From the IMG/VR virus record IMGVR_UViG_3300033066_001269, positions 3,426-67,425 of that record: a stretch of DNA of 64,000 nt; one strand, given 5' to 3'. The translations under genes and the position numbers were made by a program. The notes under the pieces are model-generated. The model saw only the letters and a list, made by a program, of their open reading frames with translations, ran no database searches and was not told the DNA's origin. Positions 1 to 10,415 of the stretch are shown here, piece by piece. Source of the DNA: a virus. Taxonomy: Duplodnaviria; Caudoviricetes. How positions within the stretch are numbered: position 1 is the first letter of the stretch; each line of letters begins with the position of its first letter.

Positions 1-1
1 A

Positions 2-229
2 CAGCAAGCGCCGTCGCCGAACGCGGAGAATGGCCGGACGAACTACCGCAAGGCTGACGGGGAAGAGTCCTGCGGCAACTGCTCGGCGTACGAGGATAGC
101 GGCCAGATGGGTGAGGGGCAGTGCCGGAAGTACAGCCTTTCCTGCCGCGCGGACCATGTGTGCGACGGCCACATGGAAGGCGGCGGCGGCGAGGGGATGG
201 TGGAAGGCGCAGAAGGCGGAGAAGAATAG
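2..229 (+). CDS. Partial (5'-truncated) small Cys-motif protein
   Basis: Frame 2 is open from the window start: NYRKADGEESCGNCSAY...GQCRKY...HVCDGH, stop TAG at 227-229; not in the ORF track. Confidence 0.55.
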   Translation, partial: QQAPSPNAENGRTNYRKADGEESCGNCSAYEDSGQMGEGQCRKYSLSCRADHVCDGHMEGGGGEGMVEGAEGGEE

Positions 230-255
230 CAGTTCCGAAAGGGGGTGATCCAACC

Positions 256-303
256 TTGGCGAAGAAGATGAAAAAGGGAGGCGGCAAGAAAAAGAAGTGC
301 TAA
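256..303 (+). CDS. Putative 15-aa basic micropeptide MAKKMKKGGGKKKKC
   Basis: TTG at 256 preceded by a G-rich SD-like AAAGGGGGTGA; fills the gap before TerS. Confidence 0.35.
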   Translation: MAKKMKKGGGKKKKC

Positions 304-318
304 CTACAGCACTGCTCT

Positions 319-1164
319 ATGCCGCGCTCACAAGCATCGGAAGACCTTATGTCACCGGGAGTGATTCGAGCCCAGTTATGGGAAGCGTACAACCGGGACA
401 AACCGCTTCCGGGGACTCCGTTTACGGAGTGGTGCCAGGAACAGGCAAAGACCTTTGGCGGCGTCATCAACGCCGCTACCGTCATGTCGTGGATCGCCCA
501 CGATGTGCGGGAGTTCGAGCAGCAGGTCTCTGCAAAAAAGGCGACGCTGGCGCAAAAGATCGCCGAACTTACTGGCGCCGGCCTCGTCAAGACACTGACC
601 CGCCTGGGTGAGCTGCTGGACGCGGAGAAAGTACGGCCGGTGGTGGACAAGCAGGGCGTTCCCCAGTTTGACGCTGCCGGCAACATGATGATGATTCGGA
701 CGCCGGACAATGCGACGCGCATGGCGGCGGTCCGGATGGGCGTCGAGATCTTCGGAGCGGCGGCGCCTAAGAAAGTGGAAGTCGAGCACGGCATCAGCGA
801 GGAACTCAAGAACCTGACGGAAGCCGATATTCAGGTGAGAATTCTCGAGTGGGCGGCGACGGCGAACCGATTACTTGGCGGAGAGACAACAGCTTTTACA
901 GATCCAGAAGCAGATCGAGGCGGCAGCGCAGGAACTCATGTTCCGGAAAGCGCAAAGGGACGCCTTCTACTGGCTGACGGAACTGACGCTGACGAAGGAC
1001 GAACAGGACCTCGACGACCCGTACAAACCGTTCCCGAAAAAGGAGTACGTCCGGCTCATGCTCGAACTCATCGAGCGGGAGCCGATTCTGTTCATCGAGA
1101 AAAGTCGCACGATGCTGATGTCGTGGACGGTAAGCGGGTGGGCGGCCCACAAGGGCTTCACTAG
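319..1164 (+). CDS. Putative terminase small subunit
   Basis: Immediately upstream of TerL; helical N-terminus, then APKKVEVEHG...LKNLTEADI typical of TerS C-termini; the 3' 290 nt overlap TerL. Confidence 0.6.
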   Translation: MPRSQASEDLMSPGVIRAQLWEAYNRDKPLPGTPFTEWCQEQAKTFGGVINAATVMSWIAHDVREFEQQVSAKKATLAQKIAELTGAGLVKTLTRLGELLDAEKVRPVVDKQGVPQFDAAGNMMMIRTPDNATRMAAVRMGVEIFGAAAPKKVEVEHGISEELKNLTEADIQVRILEWAATANRLLGGETTAFTDPEADRGGSAGTHVPESAKGRLLLADGTDADEGRTGPRRPVQTVPEKGVRPAHARTHRAGADSVHREKSHDADVVDGKRVGGPQGLH

Positions 1165-1552
1165 GCCGGCGACCTGCACGGTCTTTCAGTCCAAAGACGA
1201 AGACCGCGCGATTCACGATATCGAGTACGTCAAATGCCTCTGGGAAAACAGTCCGGATTGGTTGAAGGCGCGCTGGCCGCTCGAACGGCCGCTCGACCGT
1301 CAGGCGTTGACGGAGCTGAAGGCGGCGAACGGAAGCCGCTGGGTAGCGATTCCCGGAGATCCGGACAAGGTTCGATCGGAGCACCCGACGATCTACGTCC
1401 AGGACGAAGCGGCGATCATTCCGCACGGGGAGGAGAGCTACAACGTGGCGAAAGCGGCAAAACCCCTGTGGATTGTGGCGCTGTCGTCGGCCAAGCCGGG
1501 GTGGTTTCAGGCAGTGACCGAGGAGGCGAAGCCGGCAGCGTGGCCCGCGTGA
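875..1552 (+). CDS. Terminase large subunit, N-terminal ATPase half
   Basis: Walker A-like EKSRTMLMSW, Walker B IYVQDEAA, coupling motif SSA then PGWF; stops at 1552 with no nuclease domain. Confidence 0.85.
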   Translation: MAERQQLLQIQKQIEAAAQELMFRKAQRDAFYWLTELTLTKDEQDLDDPYKPFPKKEYVRLMLELIEREPILFIEKSRTMLMSWTVSGWAAHKGFTRPATCTVFQSKDEDRAIHDIEYVKCLWENSPDWLKARWPLERPLDRQALTELKAANGSRWVAIPGDPDKVRSEHPTIYVQDEAAIIPHGEESYNVAKAAKPLWIVALSSAKPGWFQAVTEEAKPAAWPA

Positions 1553-1585
1553 TCGGCAAAGATTTCGTAACTGGACGGCTTTTTT

Positions 1586-2500
1586 ATGCCTGAAATCAGA
1601 ATCGACGGGCCGGATGATAACGGCGGACTGGGAAGCACGGGATCGAAACAAAGCTTGAAAACCGTCCTTTTTAGCCCGGTATGCACGTCGCCCGCGATCC
1701 TTCGCGAAACGCTGCCGGACTGGTTCGCTCTCCGCGGAGTAGATGAGATCTGGGTCTACGACGACAACAAAGACCCGGAATCGAGCGAGATTCTGAAGAA
1801 GGCGAAGGTCAAGATTCTGCCGGCGGAAGACCTTTTGCTATCGTCCCGCGAGAACAGCGAGTACAGCACCGACGAGATTACGCACCGGTGGACAAAAGAT
1901 TCTGTCAAGCGGGTCACCCAGATCAAGGACTTCGCTATCTATCTTGCGGGCAAGGCAAAAGCGAACCTGTTCCTGATCGACGCTGACGTAGCTCCGCATC
2001 CGGATACGGTTGCCAACTTGGCCGAGGAGAGCGGATGCCACCCAAGAGCAACGATCGTCGGGGAGGTGTTCTGGACGCAGTGGGCTCCGGGCCAGCCGTA
2101 TTTGCCAAATGCGTGGATGACTCATCCCTACAATTTCAACGGTCCGGACTCTCTCATTAATTTAGCGAAGGGATACCCAATCCAGCATGTTGGAGGGATC
2201 GGAGCGTGTACATACATCCCCAGAAGTGCCATGGAGAAGGGTCTTGCTTTTAAACCAATTGTTGGGATCCCTGAATCGTGGTGGGAAGACCGAACTTTCT
2301 GTATCCGAGCGGCGGCGAAAGGGGTACGGCTCCTCGCCAGCACGACACACCCACCATTCCACATCTACCGCGAGTCGATGATTCCCGAGTGTAAGGACTG
2401 GAAGAAGGCTGGCCGGTCCAAGGAATGGTTTCTCAAGAACTGGCTTACTGACCAATGGCGGCAACAGGTAACGGATCTTCTATCGCCCAAGCCGCAGTAG
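1586..2500 (+). CDS. GT-A fold (GT2-like) glycosyltransferase inserted between the TerL halves
   Basis: VYDDN, DxD motif LFLIDADV, EVFWTQW, VGGIGACTYI, WEDRTFCIRAAAKG and PFHIYR motifs typical of GT2-like enzymes. Confidence 0.8.
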   Translation: MPEIRIDGPDDNGGLGSTGSKQSLKTVLFSPVCTSPAILRETLPDWFALRGVDEIWVYDDNKDPESSEILKKAKVKILPAEDLLLSSRENSEYSTDEITHRWTKDSVKRVTQIKDFAIYLAGKAKANLFLIDADVAPHPDTVANLAEESGCHPRATIVGEVFWTQWAPGQPYLPNAWMTHPYNFNGPDSLINLAKGYPIQHVGGIGACTYIPRSAMEKGLAFKPIVGIPESWWEDRTFCIRAAAKGVRLLASTTHPPFHIYRESMIPECKDWKKAGRSKEWFLKNWLTDQWRQQVTDLLSPKPQ

Positions 2501-3444
2501 GCCGCGGCGCTCCTCCGTTGGGACCGTCAAGCCCGCTGCCCGGGCTGGGGTTCCGGCGAACGGCGAACGGCATTGCGGTGGCGCGCGTCCACTGGTCCGC
2601 GGATCCGGACAAGACGCAGGCCTGGGCGGAGAAGGAGTTCGCCGGCTATACCGATAAGGCGTTCTGGCTCCAGGAAATGGAGATCCAGTACGACGCCCGG
2701 GACGGCCAGCGGGTCTATCCAGAGTTCGACACTTCGGTCCATGTGATCACGCGGGAGGAGATGCCGCCGCGGATGACCCGGTACATGGCGATCGACCCTC
2801 ACCCGCGCACGCCGCACGCGATGTTGTGGGTGGGCATTGATCAGTGGTCGGACTGGTACGTCTATCGGGAACTGTGGCCGTCGATCATCTGCGGGCTGCC
2901 GAAAGCGCTCAAGGACACCGACGAGGAGAATTCGTTCACCATCCGGGACTACGCGGAAACGATGGCGGTGCTCGAAGGGAACGAACTGGAGTGGCACAAT
3001 CCTGAAACCGACCGGGAATACGGCATTTATCGAATGCGCGCGGGCGGGGAAAAGATCGTTTACCGGTTCATGGACCAGGCGGGGAAAGCGTTCCGCGCTA
3101 CCGGCGAGGGACAACAAGCGGAATCCTACGCCCAGCGGTATGCCCGGTTCGGCGTTCAGTGCCAGGACCCGCTCAAGAAACACGAAGCGGGCGAGGATGC
3201 GATTCGGAAGCTCCTGAAGCCCCGCAAGCACGATATCCGGGGAACGTGGCCCAAGCTGCATATCTCGGCGGATTGCCCCGAGTTGATTTTGGAGTTCCAG
3301 AAGTATAAGTACAAGTCGATGAAACGGCTGAATGCGGAAAAGGAACTCTACCAGGACGGGGTAGAAGCCCGCTGTCACCTCCTGGACGACCTACGGTATC
3401 TCGCGACGGCGGATATCGGTTACATCCCCACGATGGTGAGCTGA
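2455..3444 (+). CDS. Terminase large subunit, C-terminal RNase H-like nuclease half (start uncertain: ATG 2455 or TTG 2518)
   Basis: VHWSADP, WLQEMEI, VYPEFD, acidic catalytic motif MAIDPH, C-terminal HLLDDLRY. Confidence 0.85.
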   Translation: MAATGNGSSIAQAAVGRGAPPLGPSSPLPGLGFRRTANGIAVARVHWSADPDKTQAWAEKEFAGYTDKAFWLQEMEIQYDARDGQRVYPEFDTSVHVITREEMPPRMTRYMAIDPHPRTPHAMLWVGIDQWSDWYVYRELWPSIICGLPKALKDTDEENSFTIRDYAETMAVLEGNELEWHNPETDREYGIYRMRAGGEKIVYRFMDQAGKAFRATGEGQQAESYAQRYARFGVQCQDPLKKHEAGEDAIRKLLKPRKHDIRGTWPKLHISADCPELILEFQKYKYKSMKRLNAEKELYQDGVEARCHLLDDLRYLATADIGYIPTMVS

Positions 3445-3451
3445 GGAACTT

Positions 3452-3835
3452 ATGGAATTTACTCGTTTGATGGATTGCGGCGACGGGTTTCGTCGCGCTG
3501 ACAACGGTTGCGTGGCGACGGATATTCTCGCCAAGACGGCCGATTACACGATCAAGGCTCTCGACACCGGCAAGATCTTCACCAACCGGGGGGCATCCGG
3601 CGCGGTTGCGTTCAACCTGCCTGCCCCCAAGAAAGGCATGTGGGTAGGCTTCCAAAAGGCGGTGAACAACCAGAACATGGTCGTCAACACCGACGTCGCT
3701 GCCACGAAGATCCACAACCTGACGCAGGGCGTGACCTTGACGAACAGCACTACCGAGTACGGTTATTGCGAGATCTTCTCCGACGGGACCGCGTGGTTCG
3801 TCCGCAACATCCGCGGAACCTGGGCCGTTAGCTAA
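3452..3835 (+). CDS. Small beta-rich virion protein (head decoration/fibre-like)
   Basis: KTADYTI...FTNRGASGAVAFNLPA pattern; lies between TerL and portal. Confidence 0.45.
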   Translation: MEFTRLMDCGDGFRRADNGCVATDILAKTADYTIKALDTGKIFTNRGASGAVAFNLPAPKKGMWVGFQKAVNNQNMVVNTDVAATKIHNLTQGVTLTNSTTEYGYCEIFSDGTAWFVRNIRGTWAVS

Positions 3836-3841
3836 TTATTC

Positions 3842-5845
3842 ATGTCCGACCGTTCCAAAGCGTCCGAAATTCAGGAGCAAAAGAAGTTATCCCGTGACTG
3901 GCTCACGGATAACTTCTATCCGCAGTGGGAGCGGGCTTACAAGAACTATAAGCTCGAGCCCGACCCGGAGATTGGTCCCGATGGCAAGGTCGACACCGAG
4001 CTGACCTCCATCGGTATGCCGGATACGTGGTCGTTCGCGCGCCGCCAGGTGGCGCGGGTGACGGCGCAGATTCCCAACTTCAAGTTCCGATCGCGGTACG
4101 AAGAGGTGGGGAACCTGATCAGCCGGACGCTGATGTACCAGTGGGACCGAGCAGGGATTCAGCGGCTGCAGAAACGCCACGCCCTGCAGGCGACCATCTT
4201 CGGGTGGAGCCCGCGCCCGTGGTACTGGCTGGTGGACGAGGGAGTCAGTTCGAAGCGTGTCAACATCCTCGACCCGGAACTGGATCCGGTGTCCCTGGAT
4301 CAGGTGGCGAGGACGTACGAGGTCGACACCAAGGCGCTCATGGACGCCCAGCAAGGGCCGGTCCTGCGGGCGCAACTGCTGGCGGAGAAGGGCCGCGGCG
4401 GGCTGCTGCCGGTCAAGTACACGTACAAGTACTACGAGGGGCCGAAGGCGGACTTCCTGTTCGTGGGCGATTGCTATCCCGAGCCGGACTTCGAGTCGAT
4501 TCAGACCTCGCAGTGGTTCATTGTGGAGCGACGGCGGGATAAGGCCTTCTTGAAGCGGCTGGTGACGGCATATCCCCAGTTCGCCAAGGGCGTGCAAACG
4601 TTGCTTGAGAAGAACCCAAAGGGCAGCGTTCGGTACCACCAAAGCAACGAGACGGATGACTTCCGCCGGCGGCTGGAATCCGCGATCGGCCGGACGCGGA
4701 ACTTCGACGACTTGAACGAAATCTCGGGCGAGTGGACCATCACGGAGCGCCACATCCCGGGGGACAACCCGAAGTTGGCGCTGGTGGCCGAGGACTCCAT
4801 CTTCCTCGGCGAGATCGACTACCCGTACGATCTGGCGGGCAAGATCGCCTTCACGGAGTGCGTGCTGATCGACGATCTCCTCTGTGGCATCGGGGACTCG
4901 ATTCCGCGCGTGATGCGCGGGCTACAGCTTCTCCACGAGAGGCAAGTCTGCCGGCGCGTCGACCTGGTGCACAACATCCTCCGCCCGCTGATCGGGACCA
5001 GCAACCGGGAACTCTATGAGGACCCGGGCCTCATCAAGCGCCATGGCGGTTTCCGCATGGTGTGGATGCGTGGGCAGGGTGACCTGTGGGTACAGCCGGA
5101 GCAAGCGGCGATGGCGGCCGCGGCGGTCGGTCTCAATGACGAGGCCGGCTTGATGCGGTTGTACCAGATGCTCACCGGCGACACGAACATGAGCATGGCG
5201 GCGAACGTGGATCCGCAACAAGGGCGGACCGCGACCGGCGCCCGCATCATGCAGGTCAATCAGGACATCCTGACCAAGGATCTGAACGACTCGATGGCGT
5301 ATAGTTCGCTCTCCGCGGATGGGGAAATGATGCGCCTGCTCAACCGCGCGGAGCTGAGCGAGCCGATTGAGTTCAACGAAGCGCCGTATAAGAGGATCTA
5401 CGCCAAGGAGGAAGACTCCTGGAAAGACGCCTGGGTGAAGATTGAGCCGCTGCAGTTCCAGGTAGACGGAGAAATCGTCGCGGAAGTCGGGTCCACGATC
5501 GCCGACGACGACGAAACGCGGGTAGCGAAGGCGACCAACCTGTATCAAGCCGCCATGGCGAGCCCGAACCTTTTCAATTTAGAGACAGCACGAGACGAGT
5601 TCCTCATCGCCCACGGCAAAGGTCCGGAGATCGCGAAGTGGCGGGCACAACCCCAGCCGCCGGCGCCGGAGATGCGGTCCAGTCTCTCGATCGCGGTGAA
5701 ATTTGAAAGCCTCTCAGCGGAAGCGCAAGCGGAAGTCCTTGGCAAAGCAGGTATCGCGGCGCCGGACGGGCCGGCGATGCAGCGAGCGCAAAGCGGACTC
5801 CCGCTAACACAGACGCAGCCGCCGCAGGAAGGACCGGTGCAATGA
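3842..5845 (+). CDS. Portal protein
   Basis: 667 aa after TerL and before scaffold and MCP; GRTATGA motif and helical composition typical of podovirus portals. Confidence 0.8.
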   Translation: MSDRSKASEIQEQKKLSRDWLTDNFYPQWERAYKNYKLEPDPEIGPDGKVDTELTSIGMPDTWSFARRQVARVTAQIPNFKFRSRYEEVGNLISRTLMYQWDRAGIQRLQKRHALQATIFGWSPRPWYWLVDEGVSSKRVNILDPELDPVSLDQVARTYEVDTKALMDAQQGPVLRAQLLAEKGRGGLLPVKYTYKYYEGPKADFLFVGDCYPEPDFESIQTSQWFIVERRRDKAFLKRLVTAYPQFAKGVQTLLEKNPKGSVRYHQSNETDDFRRRLESAIGRTRNFDDLNEISGEWTITERHIPGDNPKLALVAEDSIFLGEIDYPYDLAGKIAFTECVLIDDLLCGIGDSIPRVMRGLQLLHERQVCRRVDLVHNILRPLIGTSNRELYEDPGLIKRHGGFRMVWMRGQGDLWVQPEQAAMAAAAVGLNDEAGLMRLYQMLTGDTNMSMAANVDPQQGRTATGARIMQVNQDILTKDLNDSMAYSSLSADGEMMRLLNRAELSEPIEFNEAPYKRIYAKEEDSWKDAWVKIEPLQFQVDGEIVAEVGSTIADDDETRVAKATNLYQAAMASPNLFNLETARDEFLIAHGKGPEIAKWRAQPQPPAPEMRSSLSIAVKFESLSAEAQAEVLGKAGIAAPDGPAMQRAQSGLPLTQTQPPQEGPVQ

Positions 5846-6150
5846 GCAATTGGAAAGAACTCCTGGGAATCGGCCGGAAGGAGGCAACTCCACCGCCGCC
5901 TACGCCGGGATTCGGACCGCTCACCGCGGAAGAGACTGAGTTTCTGAAGCAGATCGTCAAGAACGATGGGTTCATGGCGGTGCTTCGCAAGGTTATGCAC
6001 TATGAGGCAGTAGCGCAGGACGCCTACACGCGGTCCCAGTTACTGACCGGCACGCAGGTGGACGCCACCAAGTCCGCCGCGGCCGCGGAAGCGCTGTCGA
6101 GCGTTCCGTCTATCCTCATCCAGCACACGAACTTAAAGCCGAGAGGCTAA
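5842..6150 (+). CDS. Hypothetical head-module protein
   Basis: ATGA overlap with the portal stop; 102 aa. Confidence 0.6.
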   Translation: MSNWKELLGIGRKEATPPPPTPGFGPLTAEETEFLKQIVKNDGFMAVLRKVMHYEAVAQDAYTRSQLLTGTQVDATKSAAAAEALSSVPSILIQHTNLKPRG

Positions 6151-7351: not shown

Positions 7352-8566
7352 ATGGCCCAAATCATTGGGGTCCGCAATACCAATCAGGCAGTCTCCGAAG
7401 AGCGCCTGATTCGTGACGTATACCCGGATATCTCTCTGTTAGATCCGGATATCGCTCCGCTCGTGACGCTCACGATGCAACTGAAGGGGCGAAAGGATTC
7501 GGTACAGACGCCGCGCCTGGAGTGGTACGAAGACGACTACGCCGCGCGCTGGGCACAGAACAGTTCCTCGGCCGTCGCCAACAACACCAACAGCACCACC
7601 ATCACCGTCACGGACGGAACCCTATTTGTTGCTGGCGATATGTTCGTGGTTCCCAAGTCCTCGGGGTCCGGAGCGCCGGAACTGATCCGCGTCGTTTCGG
7701 TCTCGAGCAATACCCTGACCGTGAAGCGCGACGTGGGCGGCATCGGCGCCGATACCATCCCGGCAAACTGCGCGCTCCGGCTGGCTGGCAAGGCGTTCGA
7801 GGAAAACTCCTCGCTGCCGTCCGCCAAGACCACCGCGCCGACCAAGAAGACCTCGTATCTCCAGATCTTCCGGACCGTTACGAACTTCTCGAACACCAAC
7901 ATCGCTACCAAGCAGTACGGCGCCCCGAGCGGCGATCGCGCTCGCGTCCACCGCAAGAAACTGGTGGAGCACAAGGAGCAGATGAACGCGGCGCTCCTGT
8001 GGGGACAGGCTTCTGAGTCCCTGACCGGCGGCCCGACCAGCCAACCCATCCGCACCACCCAGGGATTGCGCTCGGTCATCTCCAGCAATATCACCGACGC
8101 AGGCGGCACACTCACCCGCAAGACCTTTGAAGGCTTCGCCCGCAACGTGTTCCGTTACGGAAGCTCGAAGAAGATCCTCTTGGCGGCCCCGGTCCTCTGC
8201 GGCGCCATCGGCGAATGGGCGACCAGTTTTCTGAACGTCTCCCCGGGAGAAACCCGGTTCGGCGTGAAGATCAACAAGATTGAAACCGCTCACGGCGAGT
8301 TCATGCTGGTCCGCGATTGGATGCTCGAAAACGGCATCTCCGGTCAGTCTGGGTTCGGCGGCATGGCGTTCGCCATCGACATGGACCAGATCTTCTACCG
8401 CTACCTCGCCGGCAACGGGGAGAACCGCGACACGAAGGTCATGAAAGACGTGGTGAAGGATGGAACCGACGGTAAGCGGGACGAGATCCTGACCGAAGCC
8501 GGTTTCATGATCATGCAGGAAAAGCGCCACGGCATGTTGTACAACATCACCGACTACATGGCCTAA
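7352..8566 (+). CDS. Major capsid protein (HK97 fold, DUF5309/SU10-like)
   Basis: DIAPLVTL, LEWYED, YLQIFRT, RTTQGL, EAGFMIMQEKRHG motifs; 404 aa with an inserted beta domain; SD GAGGT. Confidence 0.85.
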   Translation: MAQIIGVRNTNQAVSEERLIRDVYPDISLLDPDIAPLVTLTMQLKGRKDSVQTPRLEWYEDDYAARWAQNSSSAVANNTNSTTITVTDGTLFVAGDMFVVPKSSGSGAPELIRVVSVSSNTLTVKRDVGGIGADTIPANCALRLAGKAFEENSSLPSAKTTAPTKKTSYLQIFRTVTNFSNTNIATKQYGAPSGDRARVHRKKLVEHKEQMNAALLWGQASESLTGGPTSQPIRTTQGLRSVISSNITDAGGTLTRKTFEGFARNVFRYGSSKKILLAAPVLCGAIGEWATSFLNVSPGETRFGVKINKIETAHGEFMLVRDWMLENGISGQSGFGGMAFAIDMDQIFYRYLAGNGENRDTKVMKDVVKDGTDGKRDEILTEAGFMIMQEKRHGMLYNITDYMA

Positions 8567-9064: not shown

Positions 9065-9772
9065 GTGCTCAGGATGCTGGCGTACACGGTGCGCCAGGGG
9101 CATTCCATCTATGGACCCGTCGAATACGGCAACGCGCTCGTCCACCGCGCCAGGAATGAGGCGCTATCCGCCAATATCTCCCGCGGCAGCGATTTCTGTC
9201 TCTTTATCGACGATGACATGGTTCCGGAAGAAACCGCTCTGGAGAAACTCATCCAAAACAATGTGCCCGTGTGTTCAGCCCTCTGCACCACCCGCGTCCC
9301 TCCCGTGCGGTTCGCGGCGAGCGTCTGGAGCTCGGAAACCAACGAGTTTGGAGTCTTGGACCGAATCCGGCCCGACAAGCTCGTCAGCGGGCCATTCGCG
9401 GTTGGATTCGCGTTCCTCCTGATCCGCAAAGACGCGCTTTCCGCGCTACGGGAGTACTACCTCAGCGCGAAAGACTGGATCGAAGAGAACCGCCGAATGT
9501 TTGACCGGCTACGGGTCAAGGCGGAACTCCGGGAGCAGGAACGGAAACGCCGGGAAGAGATTCGGCGGGCGCGGTGGGAAACGGGGAAGCACCTCCGGGT
9601 GTTTGACTACCTCGTCGGGGATGACGAGTGGCAGTTGGGCGAGGACGTGGCGGTCAGTAAGCGCCTATTGCGGCTGGGATACGAGATCGCGATCGACCCG
9701 CGGGTGAAGGTAGGGCACTTGGGCGAGCACGCCTACGGGCCATGGGACCTCAATGAAGACTTCGCAAATTGA
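9065..9772 (+). CDS. Second GT-A fold glycosyltransferase-like protein
   Basis: HRARNEAL, DxD motif LFIDDDM, VGFAFLLIRK, GEDVAVSKRL, IDPRVKVGHLG. Confidence 0.75.
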   Translation: MLRMLAYTVRQGHSIYGPVEYGNALVHRARNEALSANISRGSDFCLFIDDDMVPEETALEKLIQNNVPVCSALCTTRVPPVRFAASVWSSETNEFGVLDRIRPDKLVSGPFAVGFAFLLIRKDALSALREYYLSAKDWIEENRRMFDRLRVKAELREQERKRREEIRRARWETGKHLRVFDYLVGDDEWQLGEDVAVSKRLLRLGYEIAIDPRVKVGHLGEHAYGPWDLNEDFAN

Positions 9773-10415
9773 AGACCTCGCATCGAGCGGCAACCTTCCG
9801 ACGGCCGACTTCAAGCCCGGGATGGTGCTCCGGCGCATGGTTATCCCGGAATTCTTCCTGGACCTGGAAAACCAGATCGGCCGAGTCCACTGGCTCCGCA
9901 AGACCTGGACGCAGGCGATCGTCGCGGGGACGGCGCAGTATGATATGCCGACCGACTTTCGGAAGTTTGAGACCATCCGGTTTTTCAAGTCTCCGGGAGG
10001 GGTGGAAGACCACGACCTTGAGTACATCGGGGAAGACCCGATTAAGGTGCTCACTGCTCTGGCGACGACGGCCGCGGCGAAGGCGACGGGCTACTGGTTG
10101 GAGCGAGGGACCGCGCCGGCGGAGTGGGCCATTCGACTCGGCGCCGTGCCCGACCAGGGCTACACGCTGTATGGGATCTATTACCGAAAGATTCCCTTCG
10201 AAGATGAAAGCCTGGATGTCGACCTAGACCCCTATATCCCATCCGACTACCAAGCCGGCCTGGTGAAGGGGCTCCGGCGGGAGATCGCCAAGGACCGGTT
10301 TGGCGCCGGGGATAAGCGGTACGCGATGGAAGCCGCCGAGTACCGCGATTGGGTCATGAAACTGGAGCGCACTAAAGAGGCTGGGCAACGTGTCCGGCCT
10401 GTTTTTGCTCGATGA
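9753..10415 (+). CDS. Head-tail adaptor / tail tubular protein A-like
   Basis: IVAGTAQYDMPTDF and LGAVPDQGYTL..IYY motifs; position after the head genes. Confidence 0.65.
   Translation: MKTSQIEDLASSGNLPTADFKPGMVLRRMVIPEFFLDLENQIGRVHWLRKTWTQAIVAGTAQYDMPTDFRKFETIRFFKSPGGVEDHDLEYIGEDPIKVLTALATTAAAKATGYWLERGTAPAEWAIRLGAVPDQGYTLYGIYYRKIPFEDESLDVDLDPYIPSDYQAGLVKGLRREIAKDRFGAGDKRYAMEAAEYRDWVMKLERTKEAGQRVRPVFAR

Follow-up and report, generated by a model that had tools for sequence, protein, structure and literature searches.

A probable two-chain large terminase, broken within its ATPase domain, from an uncultured temperate phage

How can a phage package its DNA if the gene for its large terminase subunit (TerL) is in two parts, and what does a glycosyltransferase gene do between them? 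The question is raised by the stretch of 64,000 nucleotides (nt) analysed here, referred to as the window, which belongs to the 67,425-nt IMG/VR virus record IMGVR_UViG_3300033066_001269 and in which a TerL N-piece and a TerL C-piece flank a GT2-like glycosyltransferase (GT), all three open reading frames (ORFs) lying on one strand (ORF listing, Table 1; positions are those of the window and C-piece residues are numbered from the start at 2518). A first-pass annotation of the DNA had placed the N-piece stop at 1552, a GT2-like gene after it and the C-piece in another frame, all of which agrees with the ORF listing and with Pfam, and had offered a naturally two-piece packaging motor as one explanation. 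This explanation holds up well, since the break is conserved, intron and intein signals are lacking and both pieces are under selection, and we conclude that the large terminase of this lineage is very probably a genes-in-pieces enzyme made as two separately translated chains, the gap between the genes being a slot for accessory genes.

Identity of the two pieces and position of the break

By sequence the two pieces are only weakly recognisable as a large terminase. The PHROG matches of the N-piece (phrog_5989, E 8e-4) and of the C-piece (phrog_5653, E 1.9e-5) are both weak, and no Pfam terminase match is obtained for the N-piece, the C-piece or even their fused relatives. By modelled structure the assignment nonetheless appears firm. 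The nearest fused relative, a 572-aa protein encoded at L004:1440-3158 and called L004 in the following, is 54-61% identical to the pieces of the window, and its AlphaFold2 model has a mean predicted local distance difference test score (pLDDT) of 88.8, with internal low confidence only at a linker around residues ~250-270 and at 535-542. The best Foldseek matches of this model are the terminases of T4 (gp17), D6E, Sf6, PhiV-1/T7, P74-26 and HK97, and those of P22 and SPP1 are matched as well. In an alignment of relatives K76 and R78 of a deviant P-loop and E178 are invariant in the N-piece and D177, S204 and S205 nearly so, D177-E178 being assigned as Walker B with the catalytic glutamate and S204-S205 as motif III, and the acidic triad D93, D186 and D290 of the C-piece nuclease is likewise invariant. 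Of the properties that define a TerL, the ATPase motifs and the RNase H-like nuclease are present, and their location on one polypeptide is missing. The single-chain terminases T4 gp17 (3cpe/2o0j), P74-26, D6E, Sf6 gp2 and HK97 have the same two-domain architecture and catalytic motifs, whereas the TerL of the window is two genes, cut inside the ATPase domain and with cargo in between.

A profile built on the fused relatives gives exactly two matches in the whole genome, which is 100% complete according to CheckV, one match to each piece (profile ranges in Table 1), and no second TerL was found with it in this complete genome. Since the profile matches nothing else, the N-piece and C-piece are the only TerL of this uncultured, temperate phage, and judged from the profile ranges they jointly cover the whole of TerL with no part lost or doubled. 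Both pieces are furthermore under strong purifying selection. Between L001 and L002, two relatives that are both split with cargo, the ratio of nonsynonymous to synonymous substitution rates (dN/dS) has a value of 0.014 in the N-piece and of 0.029 in the C-piece, against 0.23 for the cargo ORF between them, and it is 0.017 for the N-piece between L014 and L015.

With L004 the nearest unsplit homologue, which the first-pass annotation had proposed to seek, is at hand, and the break maps to its residues 253/255. The ATPase crystal structure of T4 gp17 (2o0j, residues 1-360) aligns to L004 residues 19-326 (Z 23.7, root mean square deviation 2.9 Å over 246 residues) and the P74-26 ATPase domain (1-256) to residues 33-325 (Z 20.6), while the nuclease domains of P22, SPP1 and G20c align from residue 322/328 to 564 with Z of 13-17 (17.0 for P22). 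Since the isolated ATPase-domain structures thus reach residue ~326 of L004, past 253/255, the break lies inside the ATPase domain, ~60-75 residues upstream of the domain boundary, and not at the interdomain linker as was first proposed. The P-loop, Walker B and motif III strands, the last with the helix that follows it, belong to the N-piece, which ends 1-3 residues past a conserved WP; the C-piece opens with a beta-hairpin and continues through the lid helices into the uncut hinge and the nuclease.

The first-pass annotation had also suggested that the two halves be predicted as a complex. The N-piece and C-piece together reach an interface score (ipSAE) of 0.90 in each of three runs, against 0.00 for the best of three controls, a result that supports rather than shows binding and that may reflect likeness to solved single-chain TerLs. 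The mark applied is reached by 58 of 80 solved complexes and by 2 of 110 mismatched pairs, which are rough counts with own alignments used. Between runs at least 88% of the contacts are shared, and the partner pLDDT is at least 78. Contacts are predicted between N-piece residues 71-80 and C-piece residues 18-26, most confidently between 71-77, the strand leading into the P-loop, and 19-25 (GIAVARV), and the N-piece tail (205-224) touches the head of the C-piece; in the model this geometry is as expected for sheet complementation.

In the mechanism that we propose, most of the ASCE ATPase core comes from the N-piece, while the beta-hairpin that follows in this domain comes from the C-piece, as do the lid subdomain, hinge and nuclease. 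The chains would most likely join without splicing, by beta-sheet complementation in which a C-piece strand is placed beside the Walker A strand, and such a reassembly would restore a normal TerL whose lid-hinge-nuclease connection stays covalent throughout. The break sits in a surface loop of variable length and, once the loop is cut, the gap between two essential and presumably co-transcribed late genes would be a tolerated landing site where accessory genes are gained, swapped and lost between relatives, the slot being taken here by the GT2-like glycosyltransferase. What we infer in this scheme is that the chains assemble physically and that their genes are co-transcribed, together with the part played by the GT.

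Relatives, junctions and contents of the gap

An exhaustive search by phmmer, with the C-piece as query, returned 532 matches, the best 150 cluster representatives of which were classified. Both parts are found in one chain in 34 of these (e.g. P0001, P0005 and P0007), 50 are whole C-pieces starting within 45 residues of the homologous point, 8 carry long unrecognised N-extensions and 58 are fragments or fall under none of these types. In the fused proteins the site of the window's break is a loop of very variable length (~15 to ~100 residues) flanked by the conserved ...GWF..(helix)..WP and P-x-P/C-x-G-(L/M)..RT..G..V.R.HYSADP. We furthermore compared 92 related loci, 80 viral and 12 from bacterial metagenome-assembled genomes, where both TerL parts were located in each viral locus and the class counts include the window. 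Among the viral loci the pieces are separated by 150 nt or more in 34 and lie adjacent in 14; 18 loci are fused, 7 belong to the outgroup and are probably fused too, and the remaining 8 are unclassified. The break is found at the window's loop in about 45 viral loci, and about 18-25 are fused. Of the 12 bacterial loci, 8 are split, three of them lying on Acidobacteriota contigs of Mb size and one on a Verrucomicrobiia contig of 319 kb, and the other 4 have a partial N-piece match or none. It had been remarked at the outset that interest in the locus would fall if splits proved common in this TerL family, and common they are; for this reason interest shifts from a single locus to a family-wide trait. 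Adjacent split genes are also seen in integrated prophage copies on the Acidobacteriota contigs L089, L091 and L092 (0.9-4.3 Mb) and in L093 from Verrucomicrobiia, an indication that the wider family has hosts in Acidobacteriota and Verrucomicrobiota.

At the junctions of adjacent split genes stop and start overlap as ATGA (L011/12, L070, L071, L072 and L075) or TGATG (L009), and in L014/L015 an in-frame stop is followed by GTG. Recoding of this stop codon is disfavoured, since it is TAG in one of the two and TAA in the other. Judged from their junctions the adjacent genes are two cistrons and not a damaged gene. Taken over all loci, the gaps range from 0 to 5.6 kb and from 0 to 9 ORFs, and they hold unrelated genes, some of them on the minus strand. 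The cargo of near relatives is a GT1-like gene (L005), a GT2 gene (L007), a cell-wall hydrolase (L016), DUF6625 with an RmlD-like reductase and a GT2 gene (L013) or unknown secreted or Pro/Gln-rich proteins (L001/L002), and in a distant split clade a PCMT-like methyltransferase, epimerases and an unknown ~200-aa family recur. A PHROG search of the unknown cargo ORFs matched only a methyltransferase. The gaps of L040-L054 (e.g. L047:2078-2596 and L047:5137-5781) are semi-conserved, with the PCMT-like methyltransferase usually first after the N-piece and the unknown ~200-aa family (14 copies) often directly before the C-piece. Endonuclease domains are found in just 2 of 113 gap ORFs, one HNH_3 and one Endonuclease VII, and since so few carry them homing endonucleases are not the driver.

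The glycosyltransferase of the window scores 24.5 bits against PF00535, for which the cut-off is 23.3, and carries a DxD-type motif, DAD, within LIDADV; its relatives are P0151, which is 91% identical, and P0152/P0153, which are 40-43% identical and carry PF13704. Its start is probably the TTG at 1655, because P0151 begins MKTVLF. The spacer of 33 nt that the first-pass annotation saw on the left holds only for the ATG at 1586, and with the probable start it becomes ~100 nt. The GT ORF is in the frame of the N-piece, behind two stops, and the C-piece is in a frame different from that of the N-piece. No homologue of this GT is found in the gaps of other related loci. Since relatives are broken at the same loop without cargo, as in the ATGA junctions, or with unrelated cargo, the GT is not the cause of the split, as had been supposed, and is instead incidental cargo in a pre-existing slot. 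The similarity between the end of the N-piece and the end of the GT that had been read as a possible insertion scar is at chance level, scoring 16 where the null is 14.1 +/- 2.7 and being reached by 26% of control pairs, and an insertion scar or target-site duplication is thereby rejected. In a ~90% identical relative from bioreactor sludge the difference lies mainly at 1510-1656, in the N-piece tail, the spacer and the 5' end of the GT, where 329 nt replace 145 nt, and the junction is thus variable even among close strains.

Both in a tree of the C-part and in a quick tree of the concatenated N- and C-parts, fused forms are nested among split ones at three separate places. In the quick tree the grouping (L085 split,(L004 fused,(L001,L002 split))) has an SH-aLRT support of 98, and the starred branches force at least 3 changes between the split and the fused state. 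This nesting suggests that the loop was cut repeatedly or that split genes were fused again. The fused loci lying among split ones are L004, L018, L023-L038 and L058. As a tentative and rather doubtful extension, the loop may be a toggle in evolution, the two-chain state being ancestral in the clade and maintained, either because it gives genes of host interaction, glycan-modifying enzymes for instance, a place for late expression or because TerL-sensing immune receptors of Avs type recognise a two-chain TerL less easily, in which case the fused L004, L018 and P0019-like clade would be independent re-fusions.

Alternatives to two reassembling chains

The strongest alternative accepts two chains and denies that they form a stable heterodimer: ATPase and nuclease would be separate subunits meeting only at the portal, or the C-piece would have another partner. 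In its favour, binding of the two pieces is here a prediction of the model, and phi29-type motors function without a nuclease domain. However, ~60-70 residues of the ATPase domain, among them the lid and the strand that neighbours the P-loop strand, belong to the C-piece. For this reason the N-piece alone would be an incomplete fold, and we regard the alternative as improbable.

Beyond the likeness to solved single-chain TerLs already mentioned, some further observations weigh against a reassembling two-chain terminase. According to a review on T4 (PMC3012670), gp17 that is split at the linker retains its ATPase and nuclease activities but no longer translocates DNA, so that a working two-chain motor cannot be taken for granted; the natural cut in the window is however placed elsewhere and leaves the hinge covalent. 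Shine-Dalgarno scoring gives a strong match at neither of the start candidates of the C-piece, the ATG at 2455, which implies a 46-nt overlap with the GT, and the TTG at 2518. Among 50,697 phage records no close cultured relative is found, a weak match in Meiothermus MMP17 having been set aside as an ordinary one-gene Mu-like terminase.

Other explanations would bring the two parts back into one chain or take the break to be unreal. Interrupted terL genes are usually explained in the literature by group I introns or by inteins (PMC12880540; Twort PMC13729910), and short-range bypassing has been proposed as well (PMC10732093). A group I or group II intron with the GT as its ORF, whose splicing at the RNA level would restore one chain as in Jug phages, Twort and LL-H, would be the habitual answer, but Rfam gives nothing at E<=1 in window positions 1-6000 and, in 12 related loci, no match that reaches the gathering score, the gaps hold unrelated contents, multi-gene arrays and minus-strand genes or shrink to 0 nt with an ATGA overlap, and homing endonuclease domains are as rare in them as described above. 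An intron is hence very unlikely. The first-pass annotation had seen little space for an intron core and no intein motifs, which agrees with these searches and with the abutting of the pieces on L004; the unusual splicing or bypass event that it entertained finds no support in these Rfam searches. No RNA run was found listed for this DNA.

Translational recoding, by which a long-range bypass or a frameshift would yield some fused protein, has a precedent in the bypass of 7-10-nt inserts proposed for Streptomyces phage terminases (PMC10732093), and the frame does change at the junction of adjacent-split relatives. These junctions look, however, like ordinary stop-start overlaps, and in the window ~900 nt with a whole translated gene separate the pieces and two stops follow the N-piece, making recoding highly improbable.

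The notion of an assembly artefact, or of a decaying pseudogene in a defective element, draws on the origin of the data in a metagenome and on the record being of the IMG/VR class linear with no end repeats found. Against it, a 64.8-kb Logan contig, which may stem from the source sample, is identical over 600-3800, and the N-GT-C order is kept in the sludge relative, a 3.4-kb contig from a different study. The assembly is therefore sound and misassembly, which had been named as a danger, is not supported. Furthermore dozens of loci share the arrangement, purifying selection on both pieces is strong and all their catalytic residues are kept, and the complete genome has only this TerL, and we give the notion very little credence.

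Least probable is a split intein ligating the two chains by protein trans-splicing, for although fractured genes of this kind are known in phage metagenomes (PMC2677866), the N-piece (L004 residues 7-253) and C-piece (255-572) leave no residues for intein fragments, all but 2 profile positions are covered, and the extra residues of the C-piece number ~22 at most and include no HN-Cys/Ser/Thr junction.

Flanking genes, known systems and meaning

The features of the locus are collected in Table 1. No promoter-like or terminator-like site was found on the + strand at 696-3497. The upstream ORF at 319-1164 is without Pfam or PHROG match. This small-terminase-like ORF overlaps the start of the N-piece by 140-290 nt in another frame (875-1160 in the window; 545-684 in L002:19-684), and its conserved peptide LLLADGTD and the YWLTELT of the TerL frame are read from one and the same piece of DNA, which leaves the real end of the upstream gene uncertain. 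An ORF at 3842-5845 (667 aa) lies in the expected portal position and is syntenic with ORFs of 683-697 aa in L001 and L002; no Pfam or PHROG match was found for it. Further 3' are an SU10-type major capsid protein (7352-8566) and an adaptor (9753-10415), and between them an ORF at 9065-9772 is a second GT-A-like gene with a weak Anp1 match (E 0.0036). The presence of two putative glycosyltransferases in the head module suggests glycosylation of the virion or of the host surface.

Table 1. Features of the split terminase locus, in window coordinates
Feature	Position	Strand	Remarks
Candidate small terminase, upstream ORF	319-1164	+	By position only; syntenic with L002:19-684
TerL N-piece	875-1552	+	225 aa, TTG start, TGA stop; ATPase core strands; fused-TerL profile 5-230; L004 residues 7-253
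Spacer, N-piece stop to likely GT start	1553-1654		Two in-frame stops, TGA 1550 and TAA 1568
Cargo, GT-A/GT2-like glycosyltransferase	1586-2500	+	First ATG 1586 (304 aa), likely start TTG 1655 (281 aa); PF00535
TerL C-piece ORF	2455-3444	+	329 aa from ATG 2455 or 308 aa from TTG 2518; fused-TerL profile 233-541; L004 residues 255-572
ATPase-domain part of C-piece	2518-2700	+	Beta-hairpin (strand GIAVARVHW), then lid helices; from predicted contacts and structure alignment to L004 residue ~326 (nt ~2698)
RNase H-like nuclease domain of C-piece	2701-3441	+	Invariant acids in AIDPHPR, FMDQAGK and LLDDLRY motifs; from structure alignment

By analogy, the closest functional precedent appears to be the genes-in-pieces nrdA of phage Aeh1. 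Friedrich et al. reportedly described in PNAS in 2007 that the Aeh1 NrdA gene is split by the homing endonuclease mobE and that the chains are thought to reassemble without splicing. In both cases the gene of an essential enzyme is interrupted by a free-standing gene and its parts are separately translated ORFs. The insert of Aeh1 is however the homing endonuclease that created the split, whereas that of the window is a GT2-like gene, and the split in the TerL family is old and clade-wide and has cargo-free forms. In the herpesvirus terminase pUL15 other genes likewise lie between the coding parts, but these are two exons which eukaryotic mRNA splicing joins into one chain. The intron- or intein-bearing terL genes of Jug phages (PMC12880540) and Twort (PMC13729910) and the split inteins (PMC2677866) are similar in having several ORFs with genes between them. 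They differ in that recognisable elements, none of which is detectable in the window, reunite their parts in the RNA or in the protein. A search of the literature, mostly without subscription journals, found no published unspliced two-chain TerL with a cargo slot, and the two-chain packaging motor cut inside the ATPase domain is apparently a widespread but unpublished form.

Models of the packaging motor, which are mainly based on T4, assume a single TerL chain whose ATPase, lid, hinge and nuclease are in mechanical communication. In the present clade, which is large and natural, the cut falls inside the ATPase fold and the lid-hinge-nuclease part stays covalent, and this reveals the connection whose covalent loss the motor tolerates; the split TerL furthermore offers a ready two-component system for studies of motor assembly. 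Between the pieces lies a hotspot for accessory genes of a kind not described before, placed within an essential late operon. Finally, annotation pipelines and TerL-based phylogenies will miscount or truncate terminases that are split in this way.

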